From positions 1-43,180 of the IMG/VR virus record IMGVR_UViG_3300044505_000028: DNA of 43,180 nucleotides. One strand, written 5' to 3'. Shown here piece by piece: positions 1 to 21,065 of the stretch (its first letter is position 1; the number at the start of each line of letters is the position of its first letter). This DNA is from a virus (taxonomy: Duplodnaviria; Caudoviricetes). The notes beneath the pieces are model-generated. The model ran no database searches. It was not told the origin of the DNA and was given only the letters and a program-made list of their open reading frames with translations. A program made the position numbers and the translations under genes.

Positions 1-181
1 GCCGATCCGGGAGAAATGATGGCATCGGCCGGCGGCCTTGCTGGCCGACTTGAAAATGCGATCCGCGATAGCGCGTCCCTGACACCGGAACAGCGCGCCG
101 TCTTGGCCGCGATCCGCGACTACGGTTACGCATCCTTTGGTAAGCGCTCGTTCGACGGGATCATGAAGCTGATTGCTGAAC
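1..181. repeat. Terminal direct repeat / circular overlap, left copy
   Basis: 1-181 matches 43000-43180 except at positions 32, 53 and 54. It lies inside a reading frame that continues across the junction. Confidence 0.95.
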
Positions 182-3100
182 ATGCCGCCGGCTCCAAGCG
201 TGCGGCGGATGCGTTTAGGGCACGCGGCGGCGTGATTCAGCACGAAGGCGGCAGCAGCTTCGATGCCAACATCCCAAGCGGACCGAATGTGGCGGCGGTC
301 GCTGATCCGCCCTATTACGGGACCGCGTCCTATAACGATTACGAGGGGGCATCGCGAGTCGAGGCTCCGCTCTACGAAAACACCGCTGCGCTCATGGAGA
401 AGCTGTCAAAGCAAGGGAACAGCGTCATTTATACGGATGAGGCGTGGTGGGCGAAGCGCAAAGTCAAGGGCAAAGACAAGGGCAAGCCCGACGTTCCGCC
501 AGATTGGGAGAAGGGCATCCCGCTACTAGACCGCATCCAGCGCACGCTGGATCGCTTCGACATCACAGATAAGCTCATTGCCGGACGGAACGAAACCCTG
601 GGGATCATCAATGGATTCCAACGAACCAACGAGCAGCGAAGTCAGCCCGCCGGACAACAACAGCCTGCTCGGGTTGATGACCGTGGCGCTCAGCCTGTGG
701 CCGAAAGAGCGCCAGCAGTCGCTCCTGTCGCAACTGAGCCCGCAGGACAACGAAACGATGGAGCGGGTGCCGTTCAGCCAGTGGCCGCCCGAACTGAAGC
801 AGAAGGTCGCCCCGCTCCTACCGGAGAATCTGCGCCAGTAACGCAGCAAGCCGAACCGTCCAAGAATCTCGACCGCGTCGCGCGCATCGCCAAGGCGGTG
901 TTGCCGAACAATGTCGCCGTCGAAGTGAAGGACGGCGCGGTGCATCTGCGCTATCCAGGCGGCGCGCATGTGCAGATGGCGAGCGTGGGAGCCGAGCAGA
1001 TCCCGCTCGACCCTGCCGCGTGGTTCGATTCGGTCGCCAAGCAGCCCGGTGCGCTCAAGGCCGCGTTCAGCCGCGCTGGGTTTGGCGCTGTCTCGCCGCC
1101 GAAGGCCGCGTGGCTCAAGATGCCCAAGGCGACCCAGCAGAAGGTCATGGCCGAGCTGATGCCGCTGGCAGCGATCAGCGACGTTAGCGGTCGCCGCGTC
1201 GGCCTAAGCCGCGAGGCTCTGGTTAAGCTGGTCAATCCCGAAAAGCGCACCGATGCCGAACTGGCCGATGCGGTCGAGGAAGAAGAACACCACTTCACTT
1301 TTTCGGCCCTGCTGGGTGACAAGGAGCGCACGATCGTCCGCGACGAGCTGGGCCGTTCGCGGCCGGAATTGGCGAAGGAAGATCCCGCCAGCCGCGCCGT
1401 CATGGAGGCCGCCTACGAACACTGGCGGCAATGGAATCAGGATCGGCAGCGCGCCGCCGTCACGCCCAAGATGGGCGGCATCTTCGGCCGGTTGCTCGAC
1501 CGGATTCGTGGCCTGCTGCGGTTCTTCAGCAAGTCGCCCACCGTGTCGGCACCGACCGCAGCCCAGGTATGGGAGCAGCTCGACGCCGTGCGCGGTCGCG
1601 TTGCGTCGGGTGAAACGGCGAATCAGCAGACACAAGATGGGTCGAGTGAGGCGGGTGCGAATCAAGCGATGGCGACCAGCCGCCTACGCTTCTCAGTCAA
1701 CCGCCTCGGAGAGATGGCGCGGCAGAACGAACACATGCGCTATTGGTATGACGCGCATCAGCCCGCGCTCCGGGCCGAGGTCGGTGACGATGCCCCAATA
1801 ATGAACCTGATCCTGGCCGCTACCAGCCAGCGGAACACCGTCCCAGGGAACGTCACCGAAGCAGTCGAGCAGTATCGCCGCCTGTTGGCCGGCCAGCCGT
1901 TCTATGGACTGCCAGCGCATCAGTCGAATCTGGAGATGATCCGCAACGGACTGAAAGCCGGGAAAACACCGCGCGAAATCGCCGTTGATCTCATCCGTGG
2001 CGGCAAGATCGCCGAGTTCACCAAGGCGATCCTCGGCGATCCGGACGGCATCGCTGTGGATATGCATGTCGGTCAGCTACTTTACGATGAAACCGATCCC
2101 AGCGCACCCGGCTTGCGCGAGCGCGTCAAGGCTCGCATTCGTGAGATTGCAGCTAACCTTGGATGGGAGCCGAGACAGGTCCAGGCAGCGCTCTGGGCCG
2201 CAAACATTGCCCGCCGGGGCGAGAAAGTGTGGACCTATGCAGACGCCCTCCAACGGCCAGCGACGCGCGATGCCCTCGCCAAAGTCAGAGAAGAACACGC
2301 CCCAATCTCAAGCCCAGACTGGGGACGCGGAAATGCTGGCGAGCGAGCTGCTGCGGCAAATGGCGAACGATCCAGCGGCAAACAAGCCGCCGTTTCGGAA
2401 ACCGCCAGCGGTAAAGAGTCCAAGGATCTAGCCTACTCGACCCCGCGCTTCACCGTTAAGAGCGAGAAGCTGATCGCCAAGCTCCCGCCCAAGGCGAAGG
2501 CCGAACAGGTCGAAGCGACGCTGCGGAACAACGGCATCAACGACCGGGAGCTGGAGTGGACCGGCCTGGGCAAGCTGCTGGCCGACAAGAAGGCCGCTGG
2601 TCAGACGGTCACACGCGAGGAAATCGCGGCGTGCGTTGGGGACTGGTATGGAAAGAACATCACGGAGGAACGCTTAGACGACAGTTCCAACGATGCTCAA
2701 TCGAAATTCGGCCAATACACCCATCCCGGCGGTGAGAAATATCGGGAAGTGTTGGTGACGTTGAATGGCGGCAGCATGGCGAACGCACGCGATAAGGCTG
2801 CGATGCGTCTATATAATAAGCGATACAATGAGATTCCTGCGGATATGCAGCGTCAGGTCGATAGCGACCTCCGCGAATTCCCAGAATCAGCAGTCGGATC
2901 AAGTGGTGTCTATAAATCCAGCCACTGGTCGCAGCCAAACGTCCTCTTCCACCTGCGCCTCAAGGACCGCGTTACGGTCGACGGCAAGCCCATGCTGCAC
3001 GTCGAGGAAGTCCAGAGCGATTGGCATCAAGCTGGGCGCGACAGGGGCTATCGCGGAGATTTGCCAGACGAGAAGGGATGGACCGCAAGGGCATCGACCG

Positions 3101-6100
3101 ATCCACGCGATCAGTTCGATGGCTTCAATATATTCACGATCTACGGAGCGGATGGCAAAGAGATCAGAAACGTCCAGGCAAAGACCGCCGATGAGGCGAT
3201 TGAAAAAGCGCGCCAGAGCGAGGCCGTTGGCAGCTTCGGAGTGCCGAATGCGCCGTTCCGCAAGACCTGGGAGGAGATCGGTTTCAAGCGCGCGTTGATG
3301 GAAGCCGTCGCGACCGGGAAGAAGGTCATCGGCTGGACGACCGGCGAACAGCAGGCGGATCGTTTCGATCTGAGCCGACAGGTTAAGCAGATCCGCTACC
3401 AGAAGCGCGGCGAGGCCTATGACGTGTGGGCATCGGATGAGCATGGCCGTTCCCTGAACGACACCGTCGACAAACAGGGGCTTTTCGCCGATCAGATTGC
3501 GGACTTTGTCGGCAAAGACGTAGCCCGTCGCATTGTTTCCGGCGAGGGCCGAAACGAAGATGGCGACATGGTGCTGGAAGGCGTCGACCTTAAAGTCGGC
3601 GGTGAAGGCATGAAGGCCGCTTATGACCAGCGCCTTGTGTCGATCGCAAACAAGATCGGCAAAAAGTACGGGATCCAGGCCGGCAAGTCGGCTATCGAAT
3701 CAAACGACGACAACGGGACCGATATCCATTCCCTGGAAATCCCAGACCAAATGGCCGAGGACATCAAGGCCGGCGTCGATCTGGCCTTTGCCACTCCGCG
3801 CATTAAAGAGGGAGACGGCTCCTACAGCACCCCCGCCCAGCACCTAAACGACATCCTGCCTCGAGAACAGGCGCAGACCTTCCAGCAATGGGAGGACGAA
3901 GCGCAGCAGATCCTGGCGGATCCGAAGCGCATCGCTGACATTCGCGCGCGCGCTCAGGCGAACGAGGGGCTTTCGCCCGCTGAACAGGTCGTCATGACCG
4001 GGATGGTCAGCGACCAGCTCGCGGAGGCGGCCCAGAGCGGCAACATCAACCGCTGGCGTGAGGCCGCCGAGACTGCCGCGTTGCGGAAGGTTTCGGGCAC
4101 AAGGGCCGCCCGTGAGCTGGCTTCTCGTCGGCTCGATCTATCGACTGCCAAGGGCAGGCGCGAGGCGATCCTGTCCTATAGCTCAGAAATGGGCGAACGC
4201 TGGCAGCGAGCCTACACGAAGGCCAAGAACAAGGCTCAGCGCGAAGCCGCTCTTGACAATTGGGCCAAGCAGCAGCAGCGCATCCAGAAGATGCTCAAGG
4301 CACGGTGGGGCATCGACCTGTCCGATCCGCGTCTAGGCGAGGTCTTTGCCGACGCCTACAGCGTTGGGCGCCTGGCCGACAAGATCGCGGACATTGCCGG
4401 CGAAGAGTTCCACATCGGCAATCTGCTCGGCCTCTATGTTGCCGGAAATCTACTCAGCGGCGCGAGCTTTGCTGCAAACGCGGTCGGCTATCCGCTGATG
4501 GGAACGCTTGCCGGCTTCAAGGGCGTCACAGCGGCCACGGCAAAGGCACTGAGCGGAAACCTGACGAACGAGCAACTTTCCAGCTTTGGCGGCGCATCTG
4601 CGGCGGCGAAAGCCAGCGTTGCGGCCATTGGGCGCGGACTCACGAACGCTTCGCTGGCATGGTGGACCGGCAGGCCGCAGGCGGCTCGCGATGCGCGCCC
4701 ATTTGGCGAGGCTGACGACCAAGACCACACCAGAGCGAACAGCCCCATCCGGAATCCGTTCGTGCGTACGCTGATGGGTCCATTCCTTGAGACAAACCGC
4801 TTCGTGGACGAAATGTTCTGGACGATCGGTTATCATGGCGCGCTGGCATCAGCTGCCGCCGAGCGCCGCATGGCTGGCCGCCAGCAATCGATGGACGAGC
4901 TAATCCAGAATCCTGACGCGGAGATGATCGAGCGCGCCAGCGCATTCGCAGATTGGCTGACCCTGCGCGGTCGCCCAGAGAGCGAGGTTGGTAAGCGGGT
5001 GGTTGGCGCGATTAACACGCTCCGCAGCCCGACGTTTGGCGGTCATGCCCCGAAGTGGGCAGTGAACCCGCTGTATTTCACCATGCCGTTTTTCAATGCC
5101 ATCGCGCAACTCACCATTGAAGGCATCAAGCTGTCGCCCATGGGCATGATCGGATCGGTCGCGATGGCGGCGAAGCGCGGAGTCGATGCCGCGCGCTCCG
5201 ATGAGAAGTCAGTGCGGGATACGTCGTCAGCAAAAGCGATCGCAAACATCGCTTACTTGCTTGGCGGCCTCGGCCTGATGGGCCTGGCCCTGATTCCAGA
5301 TGATGACGAGGAGGACAAGTACGCCTTGCGCGGAAGCCCGACCGATAGCAAGTCTCGCGGTGAGGGTGAGATTCGGCGCAAGGCGGAGAACCCTCGCACG
5401 TTCCTGGGCGTTGATTACAGCAGGCTCGACCCCGTCGCTCTTCCGGCTGCGCTCCACGCCGATTTCCGCGATGCAGTGCGCGCGATTTCCGGCGGCAAGG
5501 ACGCGAAAAAGGAAATCATGGCGCTTGGCGAAAAGGCCATGAACTCAACCATCCAGCGTCAATTCCTGTCCGGAATCGAGGCTCTGTTCAAGCCGCAATA
5601 TGACGAGAACGGAGAGCCGAAGGGGATCGTGCGCAAATGGGCCGAAAACGCAGCGCAAACCCTGATCCCAGGTCGCCCCTACGTCAGCACCTATCGGCGT
5701 CTCACGGAAACGCAGGAGATGCAGCGCCCGAAGGATAAGCTCGGCGGCGCATACGACGCAGGAAGGCCGGCGCGCAACCTATTTGGCGAGAACGAAACGA
5801 CCCGCGAAGACACCCCGCTGGCGGCAGCCATCGGATTAGTCACGCCTCCGCACGGCAAGCCGTCGCCAGATGCGCTGCGCTGGATGGAGCGGATCCATGA
5901 CAACAATGAGAAGCTGAAGGAATCCGGCGGCAATGACTGGTGGCCGCAGCCACCGTCCAGATCGTGGACGAACGCAGGGAAGACCCAGCGCTGGTCGGAT
6001 GACGACTACGACCGCTTGCAGGAAATCGCCGGGAAGAAGTGGCTGGAACTGCTTCAGAGCAGCAGCGCGCTAAGCCGCGACCTTGCGCCCGCCATGGAAA

Positions 6101-6180
6101 TGAAAGTGATTCAGTCCCTGCACTCAGCGGCGAATAAATACGCCGCCGGGCAGGTTCGCAAGGAGGCTGCGGCGAAGTGA
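1..6180 (+). CDS. 3' part of giant polyvalent (probably virion-ejected) protein, continuing from 40102 across the circular junction
   Basis: Same frame as 40102..43180 through the overlap. Contains DPPY MTase motif IV (304-315), degenerate zincin-like EEEHH (~1279-1293), an HhH-GPD-like domain (WY..SQRN..VDMHV..QVQAALW, ~1740-2200), an SHW..LHVEEVQSDWHQ domain (~2920-3030) and a helical C-terminal region. Confidence 0.85.
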   Translation, partial: ADPGEMMASAGGLAGRLENAIRDSASLTPEQRAVLAAIRDYGYASFGKRSFDGIMKLIAEHAAGSKRAADAFRARGGVIQHEGGSSFDANIPSGPNVAAVADPPYYGTASYNDYEGASRVEAPLYENTAALMEKLSKQGNSVIYTDEAWWAKRKVKGKDKGKPDVPPDWEKGIPLLDRIQRTLDRFDITDKLIAGRNETLGIINGFQRTNEQRSQPAGQQQPARVDDRGAQPVAERAPAVAPVATEPAGQRNDGAGAVQPVAARTEAEGRPAPTGESAPVTQQAEPSKNLDRVARIAKAVLPNNVAVEVKDGAVHLRYPGGAHVQMASVGAEQIPLDPAAWFDSVAKQPGALKAAFSRAGFGAVSPPKAAWLKMPKATQQKVMAELMPLAAISDVSGRRVGLSREALVKLVNPEKRTDAELADAVEEEEHHFTFSALLGDKERTIVRDELGRSRPELAKEDPASRAVMEAAYEHWRQWNQDRQRAAVTPKMGGIFGRLLDRIRGLLRFFSKSPTVSAPTAAQVWEQLDAVRGRVASGETANQQTQDGSSEAGANQAMATSRLRFSVNRLGEMARQNEHMRYWYDAHQPALRAEVGDDAPIMNLILAATSQRNTVPGNVTEAVEQYRRLLAGQPFYGLPAHQSNLEMIRNGLKAGKTPREIAVDLIRGGKIAEFTKAILGDPDGIAVDMHVGQLLYDETDPSAPGLRERVKARIREIAANLGWEPRQVQAALWAANIARRGEKVWTYADALQRPATRDALAKVREEHAPISSPDWGRGNAGERAAAANGERSSGKQAAVSETASGKESKDLAYSTPRFTVKSEKLIAKLPPKAKAEQVEATLRNNGINDRELEWTGLGKLLADKKAAGQTVTREEIAACVGDWYGKNITEERLDDSSNDAQSKFGQYTHPGGEKYREVLVTLNGGSMANARDKAAMRLYNKRYNEIPADMQRQVDSDLREFPESAVGSSGVYKSSHWSQPNVLFHLRLKDRVTVDGKPMLHVEEVQSDWHQAGRDRGYRGDLPDEKGWTARASTDPRDQFDGFNIFTIYGADGKEIRNVQAKTADEAIEKARQSEAVGSFGVPNAPFRKTWEEIGFKRALMEAVATGKKVIGWTTGEQQADRFDLSRQVKQIRYQKRGEAYDVWASDEHGRSLNDTVDKQGLFADQIADFVGKDVARRIVSGEGRNEDGDMVLEGVDLKVGGEGMKAAYDQRLVSIANKIGKKYGIQAGKSAIESNDDNGTDIHSLEIPDQMAEDIKAGVDLAFATPRIKEGDGSYSTPAQHLNDILPREQAQTFQQWEDEAQQILADPKRIADIRARAQANEGLSPAEQVVMTGMVSDQLAEAAQSGNINRWREAAETAALRKVSGTRAARELASRRLDLSTAKGRREAILSYSSEMGERWQRAYTKAKNKAQREAALDNWAKQQQRIQKMLKARWGIDLSDPRLGEVFADAYSVGRLADKIADIAGEEFHIGNLLGLYVAGNLLSGASFAANAVGYPLMGTLAGFKGVTAATAKALSGNLTNEQLSSFGGASAAAKASVAAIGRGLTNASLAWWTGRPQAARDARPFGEADDQDHTRANSPIRNPFVRTLMGPFLETNRFVDEMFWTIGYHGALASAAAERRMAGRQQSMDELIQNPDAEMIERASAFADWLTLRGRPESEVGKRVVGAINTLRSPTFGGHAPKWAVNPLYFTMPFFNAIAQLTIEGIKLSPMGMIGSVAMAAKRGVDAARSDEKSVRDTSSAKAIANIAYLLGGLGLMGLALIPDDDEEDKYALRGSPTDSKSRGEGEIRRKAENPRTFLGVDYSRLDPVALPAALHADFRDAVRAISGGKDAKKEIMALGEKAMNSTIQRQFLSGIEALFKPQYDENGEPKGIVRKWAENAAQTLIPGRPYVSTYRRLTETQEMQRPKDKLGGAYDAGRPARNLFGENETTREDTPLAAAIGLVTPPHGKPSPDALRWMERIHDNNEKLKESGGNDWWPQPPSRSWTNAGKTQRWSDDDYDRLQEIAGKKWLELLQSSSALSRDLAPAMEMKVIQSLHSAANKYAAGQVRKEAAAK

Positions 6181-7438: not shown

Positions 7439-7764
7439 TCCGGCAAGGACCAGGATGGGTTGGGCGGACTACACGCAGGCGATGAACAACATCCTGGGCA
7501 ATCATGCGACGTATATCCTGATTCATGGGTATGACCCCGCATAAATTTAGGAATACAATATTCATCATACCACCATTCAATGGTGTCATGGTCGGTCGCA
7601 TTATATGCCACCATGCATTCAGCATGAAACTTTTCTCGCCCATGGGCGTCTTCGTTAACCCATGACACGCAAACATAAAAACTTCCAGCCGATATTTTTT
7701 CATTACACCACACGCAAATGTGGTTTTTATTAGCTTTTACGGGCTTGGCTGATGAACTCGGCAT
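7435..7764 (-). CDS. Low-GC Cys/His-rich putative zinc-binding protein on a cassette-like segment
   Basis: CVWC..KI...HAEC and a second Cys cluster. AT-rich with an AAGGA RBS. Flanked by an 11-bp inverted repeat containing GTTGGGC/GCCCAAC. Confidence 0.7.
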   Translation of the reverse strand: MPSSSAKPVKANKNHICVWCNEKISAGSFYVCVSWVNEDAHGREKFHAECMVAYNATDHDTIEWWYDEYCIPKFMRGHTHESGYTSHDCPGCCSSPACSPPNPSWSLPE

Positions 7765-7892
7765 TTATTTATTTCCTTTATCTTCCGTCCGCCCAACAGC
7801 CCGATCACTGGGTAATTGCCCGGCCCATCCGTGCACAGGATGCGGACCTTCCGCCCGTCGCGGGTTTGGTATTGTTTGGTGATGTCGATCAT
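7737..7892 (-). pseudogene. Probably truncated phage gene (TRDGRKVRILCTD..YPVIGL type)
   Basis: 51-aa ORF whose GC-rich N-terminus switches abruptly to AT-rich sequence at the GTTGGGC core (7797-7791). Confidence 0.45.
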
Positions 7893-10244: not shown

Positions 10245-10824
10245 TGGATTCTCCGTTGTGGGTTCGGCGGTCGGCGCACCAGCTATCCGCACCACGCGGT
10301 CCTGTGTTAGCCCTTGGCGTGATTATCGCCCTCTCTGCATCCCACCCCATACACCTAATCCGTTTAGTTAATGCAGACAACTTGACGACGCATCGATCGT
10401 CTTCCGCCCATGCAGACAAGCTTTTCGTTTCCCCGAAGGCGGTCACATAGGCGTTATTTCTTTTGTTACGTGCTTGCGTAAAAGAGTCGGTCCAGCGGCA
10501 ATTTTCCCGGAAATAGCCAACGGAATTATCAATCCTGTCGATAGACTGACCAGGCAAAGGCGCCCCCATGTCGGCAAAAAAATTAGCAAATGACGACAGC
10601 CATGCTTCGCAGACCTTTATTCCGCGACCACCATAATCTGAATAATTGTGGGCCGTTCTGACAGTGCAGCGATAACGAATCCCTCTCCATGCACGATATG
10701 CCTTTGTCTTTTTTAGAACGCACCCGCACGATTTGACGTAAGATTGAACGCGATCGCCTTTCCACTTTTCTATAAGCGCCGCGCGGCTGGTGGTGGGGTT
10801 GGAGTAAGGGAGGGAATGGCTCAC
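10231..10824 (-). CDS. HNH-type homing endonuclease-like protein, low GC, possibly N-terminally truncated
   Basis: KSCGC, YGGRGIKVC..W, SIDRIDN..GY...NCRW, QARNKRNN motifs. GTG start overlaps the upstream TGA. Confidence 0.8.
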   Translation of the reverse strand: MSHSLPYSNPTTSRAALIEKWKGDRVQSYVKSCGCVLKKTKAYRAWRGIRYRCTVRTAHNYSDYGGRGIKVCEAWLSSFANFFADMGAPLPGQSIDRIDNSVGYFRENCRWTDSFTQARNKRNNAYVTAFGETKSLSAWAEDDRCVVKLSALTKRIRCMGWDAERAIITPRANTGPRGADSWCADRRTHNGESNAIA

Positions 10825-11102
10825 CAGCAACCCCCTCTGTGAACTCCCGCACGAAGGACGCAGGTGAAACTATTTGCGCGCATCGCCCGATCACGAGCGC
10901 CCTGCCGGTATGCCTCCTTGCGAATCAGCTGAATTGTTTGATCCAGCTTTTCCTGCATGGCGATAGCGAGCGCCCTGACAGCTACGTCGCTGCCGCCAAG
11001 TTCAGTCTTGAGCGGATAACACTCGAGCTTCCCATCGTTTAGGTTGCTGGGAATATCGACATCGACGCGGAGCGCGGTGCCTTCGGAGCGAATCCGGATC
11101 AT
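10821..11102 (-). CDS. Hypothetical protein
   Basis: ATGA-coupled operon member. Confidence 0.6.
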   Translation of the reverse strand: MIRIRSEGTALRVDVDIPSNLNDGKLECYPLKTELGGSDVAVRALAIAMQEKLDQTIQLIRKEAYRQGARDRAMRANSFTCVLRAGVHRGGCW

Positions 11103-16084: not shown

Positions 16085-16380
16085 AGATGCAAATCGGAGA
16101 CGAGCTACACCCACGGCTCATCACTGAGTGCGGCGGACTGACGCACTCACTTCTCCAGGAGAAGCTGGAGGACACCGTAGCGTACCTGCTGAAGTACCTG
16201 CTTCTCAGGCCGGCCAGCCGCAACCAAGAAGAGCATGATGAACTGGTGAAGTACCACGAATCCAATGAGCGCGGAGCCGCGCAGGCGGCAGAGGCTCGCG
16301 CGTTTGTGTCGGCTGTCGGAGCCGCAGCGGCGAAGGGGAATCCGCTGCGCATCATTATCACACTGGAAAGTCAGGAATGA
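16081..16380 (+). CDS. Hypothetical protein
   Basis: ATGA-coupled on both sides. Confidence 0.6.
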   Translation: MKMQIGDELHPRLITECGGLTHSLLQEKLEDTVAYLLKYLLLRPASRNQEEHDELVKYHESNERGAAQAAEARAFVSAVGAAAAKGNPLRIIITLESQE

Positions 16381-16820
16381 GCGCACGCAAAGACCCCGCA
16401 TCAGCACGGACTCGACGCCGAGCGTTCGCTGAACACCTGGCCACTGGCATCAGCCAGACGGAAGCAGCGCGCCGCGCCGGGTACACGGGCACCGATGAAT
16501 CACTGGGAAACACCGCATCGAGACTGATGAAGAATGATGAGGTCCGGCAATGGCTCGACGCAGCTCGCGAGAAGGCCAGCACCGCGCGGATCATGACGGC
16601 CCAGCAGCGCCGCGAGCATCTGACGCGGATTGCACAGACGGAGATGTCAGAACACCGCGACCAGATCAGCGCGATCAAGGTGCTAAATGACATGGACGGC
16701 CTGACGATCAAGAAGATCCACCACGCGGACAAGGACGGGAACAGCCTGGGAGCGGACCTGGCGCAGATCCCGACCGAAGTGCTGCGGAAGAGACTCGATG
16801 AGCTGAGGGGGAAGAAGTGA
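16377..16820 (+). CDS. terS: Terminase small subunit
   Basis: SQTEAARRAGY...NTASRLMKNDEV...DQISAIKVL pattern; upstream of terL. Confidence 0.85.
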   Translation: MSARKDPASARTRRRAFAEHLATGISQTEAARRAGYTGTDESLGNTASRLMKNDEVRQWLDAAREKASTARIMTAQQRREHLTRIAQTEMSEHRDQISAIKVLNDMDGLTIKKIHHADKDGNSLGADLAQIPTEVLRKRLDELRGKK

Positions 16821-16944
16821 GCCCTCTGCCTAAGCGCCAATCCCCAACCGTCGCCATCGAGCTGATGGACCTCTACACCGGCAAGACGTGCCGGATTAAG
16901 TGGCCTACATTCCCGAAGGACACGGATCCAGATCACACTGCCAA
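16817..16944 (+). pseudogene. 5' half of the phage gene interrupted by the cassette array (reads on through attC1 to a stop at 17026)
   Basis: Joins in frame to 18298..18553 when 16945..18297 is removed, giving ...DHTAN|YQWNDGNWGCDCNR..., 127 aa. Confidence 0.8.
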
Positions 16945-16994
16945 CGTCGAAGCTAACGGGGCGCATAGCGCTCCCGTTCAGCGCCCTGTTGGGC
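16939..16994 (-). mobile_element. attC1 integron recombination site (56 bp)
   Basis: Minus strand: R'' GCCCAAC / AGGGC / L'' GCTGAACG / GG A GCGC TAT GCGC CC / L' CGTTAGC / TTCGAC / R' GTTGGCA. Canonical 5- and 6-bp spacers and two extrahelical bases. Confidence 0.9.
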
Positions 16995-17342
16995 GATCAA
17001 ATAACATTCAAGGAGATAAACTATGAGTACACGGATCAACTATATTCCGATGCTGCTGGATGATCTAGGCAATCCAACGTATCCAGATTATGAACTGGAA
17101 GGCGAGGACACGCCGGAACGGGCAGTGATCGAGGCCGCTTATAACTGGGAAACGGCAGCAGAACTGCGCGATGGAAAATTGATGTTGGCCAAGGTTGAAG
17201 ATACGACCGAAATACCGCCAGAAGATGAATGGGAAGACATAAAAAATGCATCTGAGGGGAATTGGAATCCTGGCGACCCGTGGCGGAAGTGGCTTGGTTG
17301 TGTTGAGGTCCGTTTGGTATGTTCCGATGTTCCGATGCCCAA
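16945..17342 (-). mobile_element. Gene cassette A (398 bp)
   Basis: Bounded by AA|C crossover points. Circularising it gives a perfect GCCCAAC...GTTGGGC attC. Visibly lower GC than the flanks. Confidence 0.8.
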
Positions 17343-17406
17343 CGCCAAAGATGACCGGGCCGCTGAAAGCGGCTCCGGTCCATCGCCTTGTTGGGCCGTG
17401 TCATGA
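17023..17406 (+). CDS. Acidic hypothetical protein, cargo of cassette A (its stop lies in the next cassette)
   Basis: AAGGAG RBS. Reads through attC2 (PNAKDDRAAESGSGPSPCWAVS). Confidence 0.75.
   Translation: MSTRINYIPMLLDDLGNPTYPDYELEGEDTPERAVIEAAYNWETAAELRDGKLMLAKVEDTTEIPPEDEWEDIKNASEGNWNPGDPWRKWLGCVEVRLVCSDVPMPNAKDDRAAESGSGPSPCWAVS
17337..17396 (-). mobile_element. attC2 integron recombination site (60 bp)
   Basis: Minus strand: R'' GCCCAAC / AAGGC / L'' GATGGACC / GG A GCCGCT TTC AGCGGC CC / L' GGTCATC / TTTGGC / R' GTTGGGC. Confidence 0.92.
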
Positions 17407-18297
17407 ATCTTTTGCCATTGGGAATGTCATTGACCCCGCCAGCGTCGCCTTGGGGGATCAATTTTGGTGGAGGCCTTAATTCGACAGCGGTTATAATTGA
17501 ATGCCGTAACCGTGGTTTGCGTCCTGATTGGATACTGTTCGCGGACACCGGAAGCGAAATGCCGGGGACGTTAGACCATGTTGAGCGCATGCGGCAATGG
17601 TGCGATGGATGGTGTGAATTAACCGTGGTTAGATGGATTCGGAAAGAACCCGTGCCAATCCATCCAGGGGTCAGCGTCAGGCCCGATGACGTAGATGCGA
17701 CAGCAACATCAGATGACGGGGACGTTGTTGTGTTCTCAAGATTTGAACCACTGCATGCGCAATGCCTGCGGTCTGGCTACCTGCCAAGCAAAGCCTACGG
17801 GAATGCAGGCTGCACAAGTAAATGGAAAATTCAACCGATGGAGAAATGGCGCAAGGAACGCGGTTTTGACCATGGTGCATTTGCCGTGGGATATGATGCA
17901 GGGGAAATTAGCAGAATCACCAAGGCATGCCAGCGCGGAGATGATCCGGGGATGACGGCATGGTATCCGCTGGTCGCCTGGGGGATCGACAGACTTGGAT
18001 GTGAGGCAATTTGCAGCAAGCAAGGGATCACAGTTGGCAAGTCATCGTGTTTTATGTGCCCCAATCTAAGGGCGCATGAATGGGAGGGGTTGCGCATCGA
18101 ACATCCCGATTTGTTCGACATTGCGATGCAGATTGAGGACCGGGCGCGGGAGGCGGGGAACATATCGGCCAGTGTTTCTTGGCCCATGCTGCGTGATCGT
18201 GAGTTTTACCGTAAAAACCAGACAACGATTTTTGACGTCCAGGAGGATCGTTGTCATCACGGAGGATGCTTTACATGATTATTATATCGAGGCCCAA
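17343..18297 (-). mobile_element. Gene cassette B (955 bp)
   Basis: Ends at the predicted GCCCAA|C core (18292-18298), which is complementary to the plus-strand GTTGGGC of attC2. Low GC. Confidence 0.8.
17403..18278 (+). CDS. PAPS-reductase-like (PP-loop) protein, cargo of cassette B
   Basis: NFGGGLNSTA PP-loop-like motif, FADTGSE, CTSKWKIQP, YPL..WG, KSSCFMCP. Confidence 0.8.
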   Translation: MNLLPLGMSLTPPASPWGINFGGGLNSTAVIIECRNRGLRPDWILFADTGSEMPGTLDHVERMRQWCDGWCELTVVRWIRKEPVPIHPGVSVRPDDVDATATSDDGDVVVFSRFEPLHAQCLRSGYLPSKAYGNAGCTSKWKIQPMEKWRKERGFDHGAFAVGYDAGEISRITKACQRGDDPGMTAWYPLVAWGIDRLGCEAICSKQGITVGKSSCFMCPNLRAHEWEGLRIEHPDLFDIAMQIEDRAREAGNISASVSWPMLRDREFYRKNQTTIFDVQEDRCHHGGCFT

Positions 18298-18553
18298 CTA
18301 CCAATGGAACGACGGGAACTGGGGCTGTGACTGCAATCGCTGGGCTGAGTGGACTCGCGCGAACCCGAAAGACGACGACGGCGACGACGACACAAACCAC
18401 GTCTGCGGAGAGCCGCGCATCAGAGCGCGGCGACTGGAAGGAAGAGAGCCATTCGACGACTGGCCGGAGAACGACGAGCAGCGAGTGGAAATGGCGGAAA
18501 GGCTGAAGGCCGAGCGCGCCGAGCTGCGAAAGCAGTGGGACGCGGAGATCTAG
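18275..18553 (+). CDS. 3' half of the interrupted phage gene, restarted by a cassette-borne ATG
   Basis: MIIISRPN|YQWNDGNWGCDCNR. ATG overlaps the PAPS-like stop and the TAG abuts the terL start. Confidence 0.7.
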   Translation: MIIISRPNYQWNDGNWGCDCNRWAEWTRANPKDDDGDDDTNHVCGEPRIRARRLEGREPFDDWPENDEQRVEMAERLKAERAELRKQWDAEI

Positions 18554-20134
18554 GTGGTCGCCGTCGCCGAACTCACCGAAGAGGCGATTGACTACCACGA
18601 GCGACTCTTGCTCGAGCAGGAACTCTATCGCCGGTCGTTCGTCGACTACTGCCGCACCTGCTATCCCGATTTTGAACTGTCGGCATGGCAGGTCACGCTG
18701 TGTGAAAGGTTGCAGGCATTCGCGGAATCAATCGAGGAAGGCAAAAGCCCGCGCCTGATGGTTCACGTCCCTCCGCAGTGCGGCAAAACGACGATCGTTT
18801 CTCGCGCGTTCCCGTCATGGATGGCTGGGCGTCGCCCCGAGTGGGACGGTCTGATGGCCAGTTACGCGCAGTCCATGAGCCGAAAGAACTCACGCTGGGT
18901 CCGTAACCGACTGCGCTCGACCGAGCATCAGCGATTCTTCCCGCGCTGCCGTCTCTCCGACGATAGCCAGTCAATCGAAGATATGGACCTCACCAGCGGC
19001 CACCAGATCATCAGTCGCGGCGTCGGCGGTGGCGCGTCTGGCAATCCGGCAATGTGGGTGATCGTCGATGACCCCTTCGCCGATCGCCAGGAAGCGGACA
19101 GCAAGACGATCAGAGACAACGTTGACGATTGGTACACCGGCACGGCAGTCGCGCGACTCGGGCCAGGCGCCGGAATTCTGATCATGCATACCCGGTGGCA
19201 CATGGACGACTTGTGCGGCCGGCTACTCAAGCGCGCAAAGGACGGCGAGGACGACCCCTTGGTCGATCAGTGGGAGCAAGTGACGTTCCCCGCCGAATGG
19301 ACGAAGGATCAGCCGCGAGAGTTTTACGAGTTCGACGAGCAAAAGCGCGGATGGCTGAGGTGCAGGTTCCGCATGCGCGACCTGATGAAGAAAAAGGCGA
19401 ACCTGCCGGATCGCGACTGGCAATCGCTTTTCAATCAATCGCCGCTGTCCGACGGCGGCAACCTGTTCAAGCGTAAGTGGCTCAACGAAGCGGAAGCGCC
19501 CAAGCGGTTCCAGTACCTCTATCAAGCGTGGGACGTTGCCGTCACCGAAGCGGACCTCGATCGCGGCGACTGGTCGGTCGGCGTGTGCGTCGGCAAGGAT
19601 CAGCTCGGCAGATACTGGCTGCTCGACGTGTGCCGTGGGCAATGGAATTCGGCTGAGCTGGTCGAAGAGATGATGCGCTTCGCCGCCAAGCATAAGACGA
19701 CGCAGCGGGTATGGGTCGAAGGCGGGCCGATTGGCCGATCGATCGAACCATGGCTGAGGAAGCGGATCCGCGAGAAGGCCGCGCTGTTCCAGCTTGAGAT
19801 TGTCGCCCACAGCGGTCGAGGCGACAAGGTTGCCCGCGCGCGTGGTCCGCTGCTGGCCGCGATGAGCAACGGCTCGTTCTACGTCCCCAAGGGGGCCGCC
19901 TGGATCGGGCCGCTCGGCGACGAGCTGGTGGCATTCCCGTCCGCCGCCCACGACGATCAGGTCGATGCACTGGCGATCCTGTTCCTTGAGCTTCAGCAGA
20001 TCCGCGAGAGCGAGCCGGCAGCGGAATTGCTCGCAGCGGATGGCGACGCAGCCCGCGTGACCGGCGGCCAGCTTGAGGACTACTACGCCGAACTCGACCG
20101 GCTGAACAAGCAAACCCCACGGAGAAAGAAATGA
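18554..20134 (+). CDS. terL: Terminase large subunit
   Basis: Walker A PPQCGKT, Walker B IVDDP, TRWH coupling motif, nuclease WDVA and HDDQVDA. Confidence 0.95.
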   Translation: MVAVAELTEEAIDYHERLLLEQELYRRSFVDYCRTCYPDFELSAWQVTLCERLQAFAESIEEGKSPRLMVHVPPQCGKTTIVSRAFPSWMAGRRPEWDGLMASYAQSMSRKNSRWVRNRLRSTEHQRFFPRCRLSDDSQSIEDMDLTSGHQIISRGVGGGASGNPAMWVIVDDPFADRQEADSKTIRDNVDDWYTGTAVARLGPGAGILIMHTRWHMDDLCGRLLKRAKDGEDDPLVDQWEQVTFPAEWTKDQPREFYEFDEQKRGWLRCRFRMRDLMKKKANLPDRDWQSLFNQSPLSDGGNLFKRKWLNEAEAPKRFQYLYQAWDVAVTEADLDRGDWSVGVCVGKDQLGRYWLLDVCRGQWNSAELVEEMMRFAAKHKTTQRVWVEGGPIGRSIEPWLRKRIREKAALFQLEIVAHSGRGDKVARARGPLLAAMSNGSFYVPKGAAWIGPLGDELVAFPSAAHDDQVDALAILFLELQQIRESEPAAELLAADGDAARVTGGQLEDYYAELDRLNKQTPRRKK

Positions 20135-20553
20135 GCAACCCGAGCATCATCATCGCTGGCGACAGCGAGCCGAAGGAGGACCGGCAGAGCGCGAAGCGGC
20201 GGCTGGAGGAAACGACCGCCGGCACGTTCGAAGACGTGGTCGCGCTCAGTGCCGCGATTGATTCCGGCCTGATCGTGGCGTTCACGGTCGGCGCCGAAGA
20301 TTCCGGCAAGGCACTCTGTGAGGTCATATTCCCACGCAAAAGCGGACAGAACGACGACGAGCCGAACCCGTCGCGGCAGGTCGAGGCGCCAACGCCGATC
20401 GGTGCGCTGGCTAAGGCTGGCGAGATCGTGCGCGGCATGATCCAACTCGAGCAGCAGAAGACCGGCAAGCACAGCGCCTATCTGGATGGAGTGACCGAAC
20501 GGAGGAACCTGCGGAAGTCGCTCATCGCAACCCCGTCGCCGTCGAGGAACTGA
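20131..20553 (+). CDS. Hypothetical protein
   Basis: ATGA-coupled to terL. Confidence 0.6.
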   Translation: MSNPSIIIAGDSEPKEDRQSAKRRLEETTAGTFEDVVALSAAIDSGLIVAFTVGAEDSGKALCEVIFPRKSGQNDDEPNPSRQVEAPTPIGALAKAGEIVRGMIQLEQQKTGKHSAYLDGVTERRNLRKSLIATPSPSRN

Positions 20554-21065
20554 TGGCCGCCACTCGATCCCCCTACGTTGCGCCGCTTCGGATGGCCACC
20601 AGGTGGTGCATGTCGCTCGCCGGCAAGCGCCTCATGTCGATCGAGTCAATCGCGATGGTGGCCAACGCTGACGCGAGCCGCGCCCGAGCCTACGCGACGA
20701 TCTTGGTCGCGCGTGGTGCGCTCGTATGGGACGGAGCCGACCATGTGCGCAAAGGCAAGAAGTGGGCCGAATGGGAGTCGTCCGATAGCCGCTCGCGACC
20801 AAAGGGTGCTGGCGGCAGCGGAGACGAGGCGACCATGGACAGCATGCGCCGCCGTCTCTCTGCTGAGATCAAGCGGCTGCGAGAAGCGCGAGGCTGGACG
20901 CAGAACGAGCTGGCCAGGCGAGCCGGAATCAACCACGTGCTGATCGTCCGGTCCGATAAATGGGCCCGCCCGCCCTCTGCTATTGCCACCGCCCTGATTG
21001 CCCAGGCGCTCGGCGTCCCGCTGGGCGAACTCTTCGGACTTGGTGCTTCCTTGGCCCGCGAATAG
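20553..21065 (+). CDS. HTH regulator (wHTH-like N-terminus plus XRE domain)
   Basis: IKRLREARGWTQNELARRAGI...IAQALGVPLGELF. Confidence 0.8.
   Translation: MAATRSPYVAPLRMATRWCMSLAGKRLMSIESIAMVANADASRARAYATILVARGALVWDGADHVRKGKKWAEWESSDSRSRPKGAGGSGDEATMDSMRRRLSAEIKRLREARGWTQNELARRAGINHVLIVRSDKWARPPSAIATALIAQALGVPLGELFGLGASLARE

Follow-up and report, generated by a model that had tools for sequence, protein, structure and literature searches.

The terminase region of a phage genome carries a two-cassette insert

The stretch of DNA analyzed here (43,180 bases, hereinafter the window) constitutes a whole virus record with a completeness rating of 95%, the ends of which share a 181-nt overlap with 3 mismatches. 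Profile searches identified genes for the terminase small and large subunits (terS and terL), a major head protein and an SSB, and also an exonuclease-like gene. We found no close phage relatives, the identity of its terL to those of other phages being at most 33%. A gene lying between terS and terL is split by a 1353 bp insert that comprises two cassettes, each with its own attC site (Table 1). This insert has a GC content of 0.527, as against 0.63 in the rest of the genome, and its GC3 is 0.51-0.53, whereas both halves of the split gene have a GC3 of 0.77, like the remaining genes.

Searches of the closed genome for tyrosine recombinases, integron integrases and serine recombinases (PF00589, TIGR02249, PF00239 and PF07508) recovered no matches, with the positive controls being detected; the absence of an integrase claimed in an earlier sequence-only reading of this DNA is thus borne out. 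There is no intI beside the array, as there would be in a complete integron, and the locus is instead of the CALIN type, i.e. at least two clustered attC sites with the integron integrase absent. Scans for promoters and terminators gave results at chance level. Elsewhere in the genome we observed a 2054-aa protein (window 16-6180), probably a large virion or ejection protein, whose sole match is to DUF7178 (575-731), a gene for an HTH protein in the late region two genes past terL (20553-21065), and a segment of the early region (10300-11100) in which the GC content is also lowered (0.53) and which has no attC match.

Table 1. Positions of the features discussed, in window coordinates
Feature	Position	Strand	Properties
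Terminase small subunit (terS)	16377..16820	+	PF03592 E 4.5e-11; phrog_51
5' part of split gene	16817..16944	+	reads through attC1 to stop at 17026, 69-aa ORF
attC1	16939..16994	- (top strand = minus)	34.1 bits, E 1.4e-6; R box 5/7, L box 7/7
Cassette B	16945..17342	-	398 bp; GC 0.51; end is 4/4 complement of own R''
Cassette B gene	17023..17406	+	antisense to attC; final ~21 residues arise from attC2 read-through
attC2	17337..17396	-	50.8 bits, E 7.6e-11; R 7/7, L 7/7
Cassette A	17343..18297	-	955 bp; GC 0.53; end complements attC2 R''; right boundary is the natural junction
Cassette A gene	17403..18278	+	antisense to attC; PP-loop ATP-pyrophosphatase, phage 'PAPS reductase' family; phrog_424 E 1.6e-30
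3' part of split gene	18275..18553 (target from 18298)	+	new RBS, ATG and 7 codons from cassette A end
Recombined core, cassette A/target boundary	18292..18298	-	G|TT on top strand
Terminase large subunit (terL)	18554..20134	+	PF03237, PF17289; phrog_38; immediately 3' of split gene
Probable decayed cassette	7460..7797	+	early region; 338 bp; GC 0.44 vs 0.61-0.62 on both flanks

The hairpins are attC sites with precise cassette boundaries

A scan of both strands with the attC grammar R''-5-L''(8)-core-L'(7)-6-R' returned four candidates, and 7/7 pairing of the L boxes was seen only in the hairpins at 16939-16994 and 17337-17396; 100 shuffled genomes contained on average about 0.11 sites with this degree of L-box pairing. 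Both hairpins display the R''/R' and L''/L' inverted repeats with unpaired spacers of 5 and 6 nt, and their folding z-scores on the + strand, which is the bottom strand, are -3.3 and -4.7. Each has two bulges on this strand, namely a C in L'' and a T in the stem. The usual first extrahelical base of attC is a G (PMC2727003), and a C as the first bulge also occurs in 10 of 51 bacterial sites.

These 51 sites come from a scan of a bacterial genome collection with a degenerate attC pattern, which returned at least 138 stretches; of the candidate integrases at these loci 8 were tested, and all exceed the TIGR02249 cut-off. One attC per locus, taken from 51 loci with canonical calls, was used to construct our own covariance model (R1, distinct from that of IntegronFinder), with 91.7% of the cells in the alignment being paired and double changes numbering 105 versus 46 in shuffles. 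In the phage genome this model matches only the two hairpins, with nothing else under E 0.28, and the opposite strand of attC2 scores just 13.3 bits against 50.8, indicating a strand preference. Given that the seed pattern was drawn partly from attC2 and partly from general attC shapes, the score of attC2 is partly circular; attC1 does not fit the seed pattern. The model is also family-limited, as it missed the sites of the phage TJE1, and no Rfam family matched within the window. With grammar, folding and covariance model in agreement, we conclude that the two hairpins are attC sites.

The end of each cassette is complementary to its own R'' at four of four positions, while the end derived from the target, which contributes bases 16939-16944 of attC1, is so at two of four. 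Closing cassette B as a circle is predicted to raise the pairing probability of its R core from 0.48 to 0.97. A lone copy of the heptamer lies at 18292-18298. The heptamer itself is common, with 12 copies in the window against 7.5 expected; hence, the evidential weight of this copy comes from its position. In these respects the sequence-only reading holds up well: it had placed two hairpins of attC architecture at these coordinates and recommended a covariance-model search, which matched both. It had also delineated cassettes of 398 and 955 bp with ends that complete an attC upon circularization, attributed the imperfect outermost R' (5/7 in the R box) to bases from the target, and taken the lone heptamer as the predicted cassette end.

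The split gene has intact homologues and a natural empty counterpart

Deletion of 16945-18297 generates a frame of 384 nt encoding 127 aa, in keeping with the in-frame restoration that the sequence-only reading had predicted, and a contig from an independent sediment run (X2, see below) omits the matching 1353 bases. HMMER searches initiated with the C-half of the target protein alone recovered 17 other proteins of 89-224 aa, all of which have at least 30 additional N-terminal residues (a word-indexed search with the same half matched only itself). One of these homologues, P0002, is 127 aa in length, with the C-half match starting at residue 44 as predicted, and P0002-P0006, which had been retrieved with the C-half only, match the N-half from the window at their own N-termini. 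Conversely, an HMM of six homologue N-termini recovered the N-half with E 2e-8 among 1039 six-frame pieces, the next best being at E 5.1, and the tail of the 69-aa ORF beyond the crossover showed no match to the homologues. Of 25 loci matched by the X-bridged protein, 12 cover the junction in a single alignment. As intact homologues exist, these comparisons indicate that the intact gene is the ancestral state. All 8 invariant residues of the family fall in the C-half. The structural model of the target protein has a pLDDT of 79.5, its best structural match reaches Z 2.8, and there were no Atlas matches.

The sequence-only reading had looked to uninterrupted homologues situated between terS and terL. 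Such homologues do exist, but in the loci fetched they are not beside terminase genes, except in one (L325) with a terL match 1.1 kb away; the claim of synteny hence rests on the X2 contig.

Seven sediment runs contain part of the region. In run X1, which may be the source of the record, a single contig at depth 15 carries the filled form. In run X2, from a different sample and study, 14 of 19 pieces are at least 99% identical to the window, and a 339-nt contig joins position 16940 to 18294, with 258 nt showing 0 differences, 81 nt on the short side and 5 letters shared at the joint. This empty junction is represented by a single contig of depth 3, aligned at 88% likeness. As the contig skips exactly the 1353 bases, the empty site exists in nature, in a near-identical phage; it is compatible with a lineage that was never filled as well as with one from which the cassettes were re-excised. 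The five shared bases make the exact crossover base ambiguous. On the top strand the empty site reads G|TT, i.e. the core of an attG site (GWT at the crossover); positions 6-9 do not contain the CRGM motif of attG hotspots. Among the junctions that the sequence-only reading had proposed to search for, the empty site was thereby recovered, and no junctions of single cassettes or circles turned up. In runs X3 and X4 both flanks are represented and 17074-18243 is not, which is uninformative at their depth of 2-4. Separately, a 151-nt contig of run X1 matches attC1 (16941-16985) at 44 of 45 bases and departs from it at the crossover side, and is likely the same site elsewhere; a contig of run X4 with low depth (14980-15058) differs from the window by one C>T and four G>A changes, which may be either strain variation or error.

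Cassette genes are inverted relative to attC and form an overlapping chain

Both cassette genes are on the + strand, downstream of and antisense to their own attC, a point absent from the sequence-only reading. Neither cassette has the canonical arrangement, in which the ORF is on the top strand and upstream of attC. The stop of terS and the start of the target gene share 4 bp, and terS, the N-half, the cassette B gene, the cassette A gene and the C-half form a chain of consecutive 4-bp stop/start overlaps that is followed at once by terL. Each of the three junctions has its AAC core in frame.

The cassette B protein has three homologues (102-109 aa, 54-74% identity), which terminate at the cassette end; its Atlas matches were all below 0.9, and no viral locus was found among its relatives. 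The cassette A protein owes its PAPS reductase label to PHROG, since it lacks Pfam or PDB sequence matches and its best NCBIfam match is at E 0.0013. Its structural model (pLDDT 72.7) matches the folds of the tRNA thiolase NcsA, CysH, YcfA and TilS with E 7e-5 to 8e-4, the best match being the tRNA thiolase. It thus shares its fold with the PP-loop ATP pyrophosphatases (CysH/PAPS reductase, the TtuA/NcsA thiolases and TilS), but at an identity of 9-17%. The product is likely to be a PP-loop enzyme that modifies nucleotides or DNA, rather than one of sulfate assimilation.

Relatives of this protein occur at 10 viral loci (49-61% identity), and no attC was detected near them at the 8 loci tested. 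Five phage relatives have the same C-terminus and the same stop/start overlap with no attC nearby, which suggests that cassette A could be a slice of a phage operon, retaining its family's overlap together with 7 codons of a following ORF. A random cut does not account for the perfect R-box match at the end of this cassette. Neither cassette gene was found inside an attC cassette elsewhere among the loci tested. With genes that are inverted and phage-type, both cassettes differ from ordinary bacterial cassettes. Another phrog_424 PP-loop gene, 22% identical to that of cassette A, lies beside an attC in a further locus (L046 209-937), indicating that the family recurs as cargo.

A probable third cassette in the early region

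The segment at 7460-7797 is probably a third, decayed cassette that has lost its hairpin; it is graded only as probable given that the hairpin is missing. Its gene (7764-7435, minus strand) is preceded by an R''-like heptamer and has the heptamer complement at its end, in the same gene-sense order as in the two cassettes. The gene upstream of it (7892-7797), a member of phrog_4466, is cut at GTT, at profile position 34 of 70, and a few codons after the end of the relic lead to a stop that overlaps the next start. There was no covariance-model match in this segment. A weak relative of the relic gene (E 9e-5 among the fetched loci) follows an attC in another locus (L025), and homologues of the ORF after the relic do not settle which gene it split.

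Inverted cassettes predominate at the viral attC loci scanned

We scanned viral contigs with the same attC pattern as the bacteria and obtained at least 132 stretches. Gene orientation was called in both sets with one composition-based gene caller of our own, after removal of duplicate sites and those less than 200 nt from the ends, which left 64 of 80 viral and 68 of 79 bacterial loci among the matches listed, some of which overlap. Within these, the viral loci were antisense in 58 cases, canonical in 1 and mixed in 5 (n=64), whereas the bacterial ones were canonical in 56, antisense in 4 and mixed in 8 (n=68). Four loci from bacterial genomes in the antisense layout (L158, L159, L181 and L193) may be prophage DNA. 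ORF coverage, tried as another test of orientation, was dropped since GC-rich shadow ORFs rendered it uninformative (68 vs 70).

Among the same listed matches, complementarity between a cassette end and its own R'' was seen for 90 of 131 viral cassettes (permuted mean 18.7, maximum 30) and for 96 of 128 bacterial ones (permuted mean 14.4). As both sets obey this rule, their polarity and circular mobility are alike and the genes alone are flipped. The viral upstream genes (n=65 among the matches listed) read through the AAC in frame in 26 cases and stop on it in 19. A PHROG scan covered 119 of the 122 called flanking genes, including four top-strand calls, none of which matched; all 47 genes with a match (of 119 among the matches listed) are on the bottom strand, and 12 of these encode DNA methyltransferases. 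The site TJE1_attC1, validated with IntI1, is canonical relative to the annotated genes, and thus the inversion is not universal in phages.

A mechanism for the insertion and its alternatives

We consider it probable that two inverted-gene attC cassettes were inserted at a bare G|TT by an integron integrase that the host supplied in trans, where it is the action of an integrase and its source that we infer. IntI recombines folded bottom strands and inserts at GWT sites, and use of the GWT core, gene disruption and precise excision have been demonstrated for IntI1 in E. coli (10.1101/2022.09.11.507474); further, IntI1 recombined five of six phage attC sites (PMC9892861). Each cassette would have been excised as a circle from the attC array of another phage, and its folded bottom strand, here the coding strand, would have recombined into double-stranded phage DNA at a site of the attG type, either one cassette after another or as a single two-cassette circle. 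The product would have survived because at the junctions each frame either continues or starts anew: translation would still reach terL, with the conserved C-terminal part of the target still being made, and selection against polarity on terL would have retained this outcome. The cassettes would belong to a phage-side pool in which attC precedes the gene. More speculatively, if genes are co-directional with replication, inversion would place the bottom strand on the lagging-strand template, a configuration that favors recombination (PMC5371416). It might also keep anti-phage cassettes of the host (10.1101/2024.07.02.601686, 10.1101/2024.07.02.601719) silent when they enter phage arrays.

The same chemistry performed by another enzyme, namely an IntI or IntI-like protein encoded by a co-infecting phage or by a prophage or plasmid, or else a hairpin-recognizing tyrosine recombinase other than IntI, appears unlikely to us, if still worth entertaining. 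Phages and phage-plasmids that bear intI do exist (PMC9892861), and both cargo and layout are phage-specific. A host integron with this attC subtype was likewise not found in the genomes scanned (0 of 301 Planctomycetota, 0 of 301 Verrucomicrobiota and 0 of 5 further genomes), although not finding it is different from its being absent. Against this, none of 50 attC-bearing virus records, 10 of them at least 90% complete, has an integron integrase above the TIGR02249 cut-off, with four of the 50 showing weak generic matches, and the same family of attC sites adjoins chromosomal intI genes.

Less probable still is that phage recombination proteins joined a piece of an array, or a circle, from another phage at the five shared bases by microhomology or illegitimate recombination. 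The five letters do fit both sides of the joint, the phage has the exonuclease-like gene and SSB, Qi et al. have suggested such routes (PMC9892861), and hairpins also disappear through deletion, as the probable relic at 7460-7797 shows. However, both ends of the insert lie on cassette boundaries at the IntI core with no extra DNA carried along, and the cassette-end rule recurs in 90 of the 131 listed viral cassettes. A transposon-like element is highly improbable: the five shared bases do flank the insert as a direct repeat, resembling a 5-bp target duplication, but terminal inverted repeats are absent, neither ORF is transposase-like and there is an attC within the insert, which splits it into two units that are each self-complementary.

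Relationship to known systems and implications

The sequence-only reading had presented integrase-less attC clusters as known from bacteria, which needs amendment, as 17 CALINs among 10,705 phages had already been published (Qi et al. 2023, PMC9892861). Those share with the present locus at least two attC sites on one strand of a phage genome without intI, and DNA-modification cargo is common in them. Here, in contrast, base resolution is available for the target site, for the gene that is split and for an empty allele in nature, and the genes are antisense; the main text of that study does not describe an inverted class, while its figures and annotation file may show orientation. The attG insertions, SALINs and small CALINs of Loot et al. 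(10.1101/2022.09.11.507474; Nat Microbiol 2024) likewise feature cassettes at GWT cores outside an integron with disruption of a gene, precise excision is possible, and half of those CALINs have two cassettes. They were, however, described from bacterial chromosomes and in the laboratory, whereas the present case is natural, in phage DNA and without CRGM at the hotspot positions. With the chromosomal integron arrays of Beta- and Gammaproteobacteria, Desulfobacterota, Chloroflexota and others the locus has in common the attC family and the cassette-end rule. In those arrays, however, the top strand carries the gene ahead of its attC, with expression driven from Pc, whereas here attC precedes the gene, the phage late operon would drive expression and the frames cross attC. 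Phage CALINs and attG insertion are thus published, while for the inverted layout and the natural filled/empty pair we found no paper in a literature search that had subscription papers and preprint supplements outside its scope.

The origin of the published phage attC clusters had stayed open, and the filled and empty alleles, whose junction falls on the IntI core, suggest that an integrase inserted the cassettes directly into phage DNA. Somewhat more tentatively, and leaning slightly to the doubtful side ourselves, we propose a phage-owned pool of inverted cassettes, cut from phage operons, which host IntI moves into any AAC/GTT of a phage. If so, insertion would be non-polar, because attC precedes the gene and the frames run through attC, and host cassettes, often anti-phage, would be silent in phage arrays just as phage cassettes would be in attI. 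The locus would then document such an insertion in nature to the exact base, with cassette A tracing the making of a cassette. That the inversion is systematic suggests use of the host cassette machinery by phages for their own accessory genes, which would be a route to phage mosaicism, and inverted cassettes may give a handle on the long-open question of cassette creation. The locus also supplies a ready substrate for a recombination test.

A further phage array observed in the course of the survey (L020 900-3900) contains at least seven attC sites, several of which have an RBS and a start codon inside the loop, and all 5 of the cassette ends scored in it complement their own R''.
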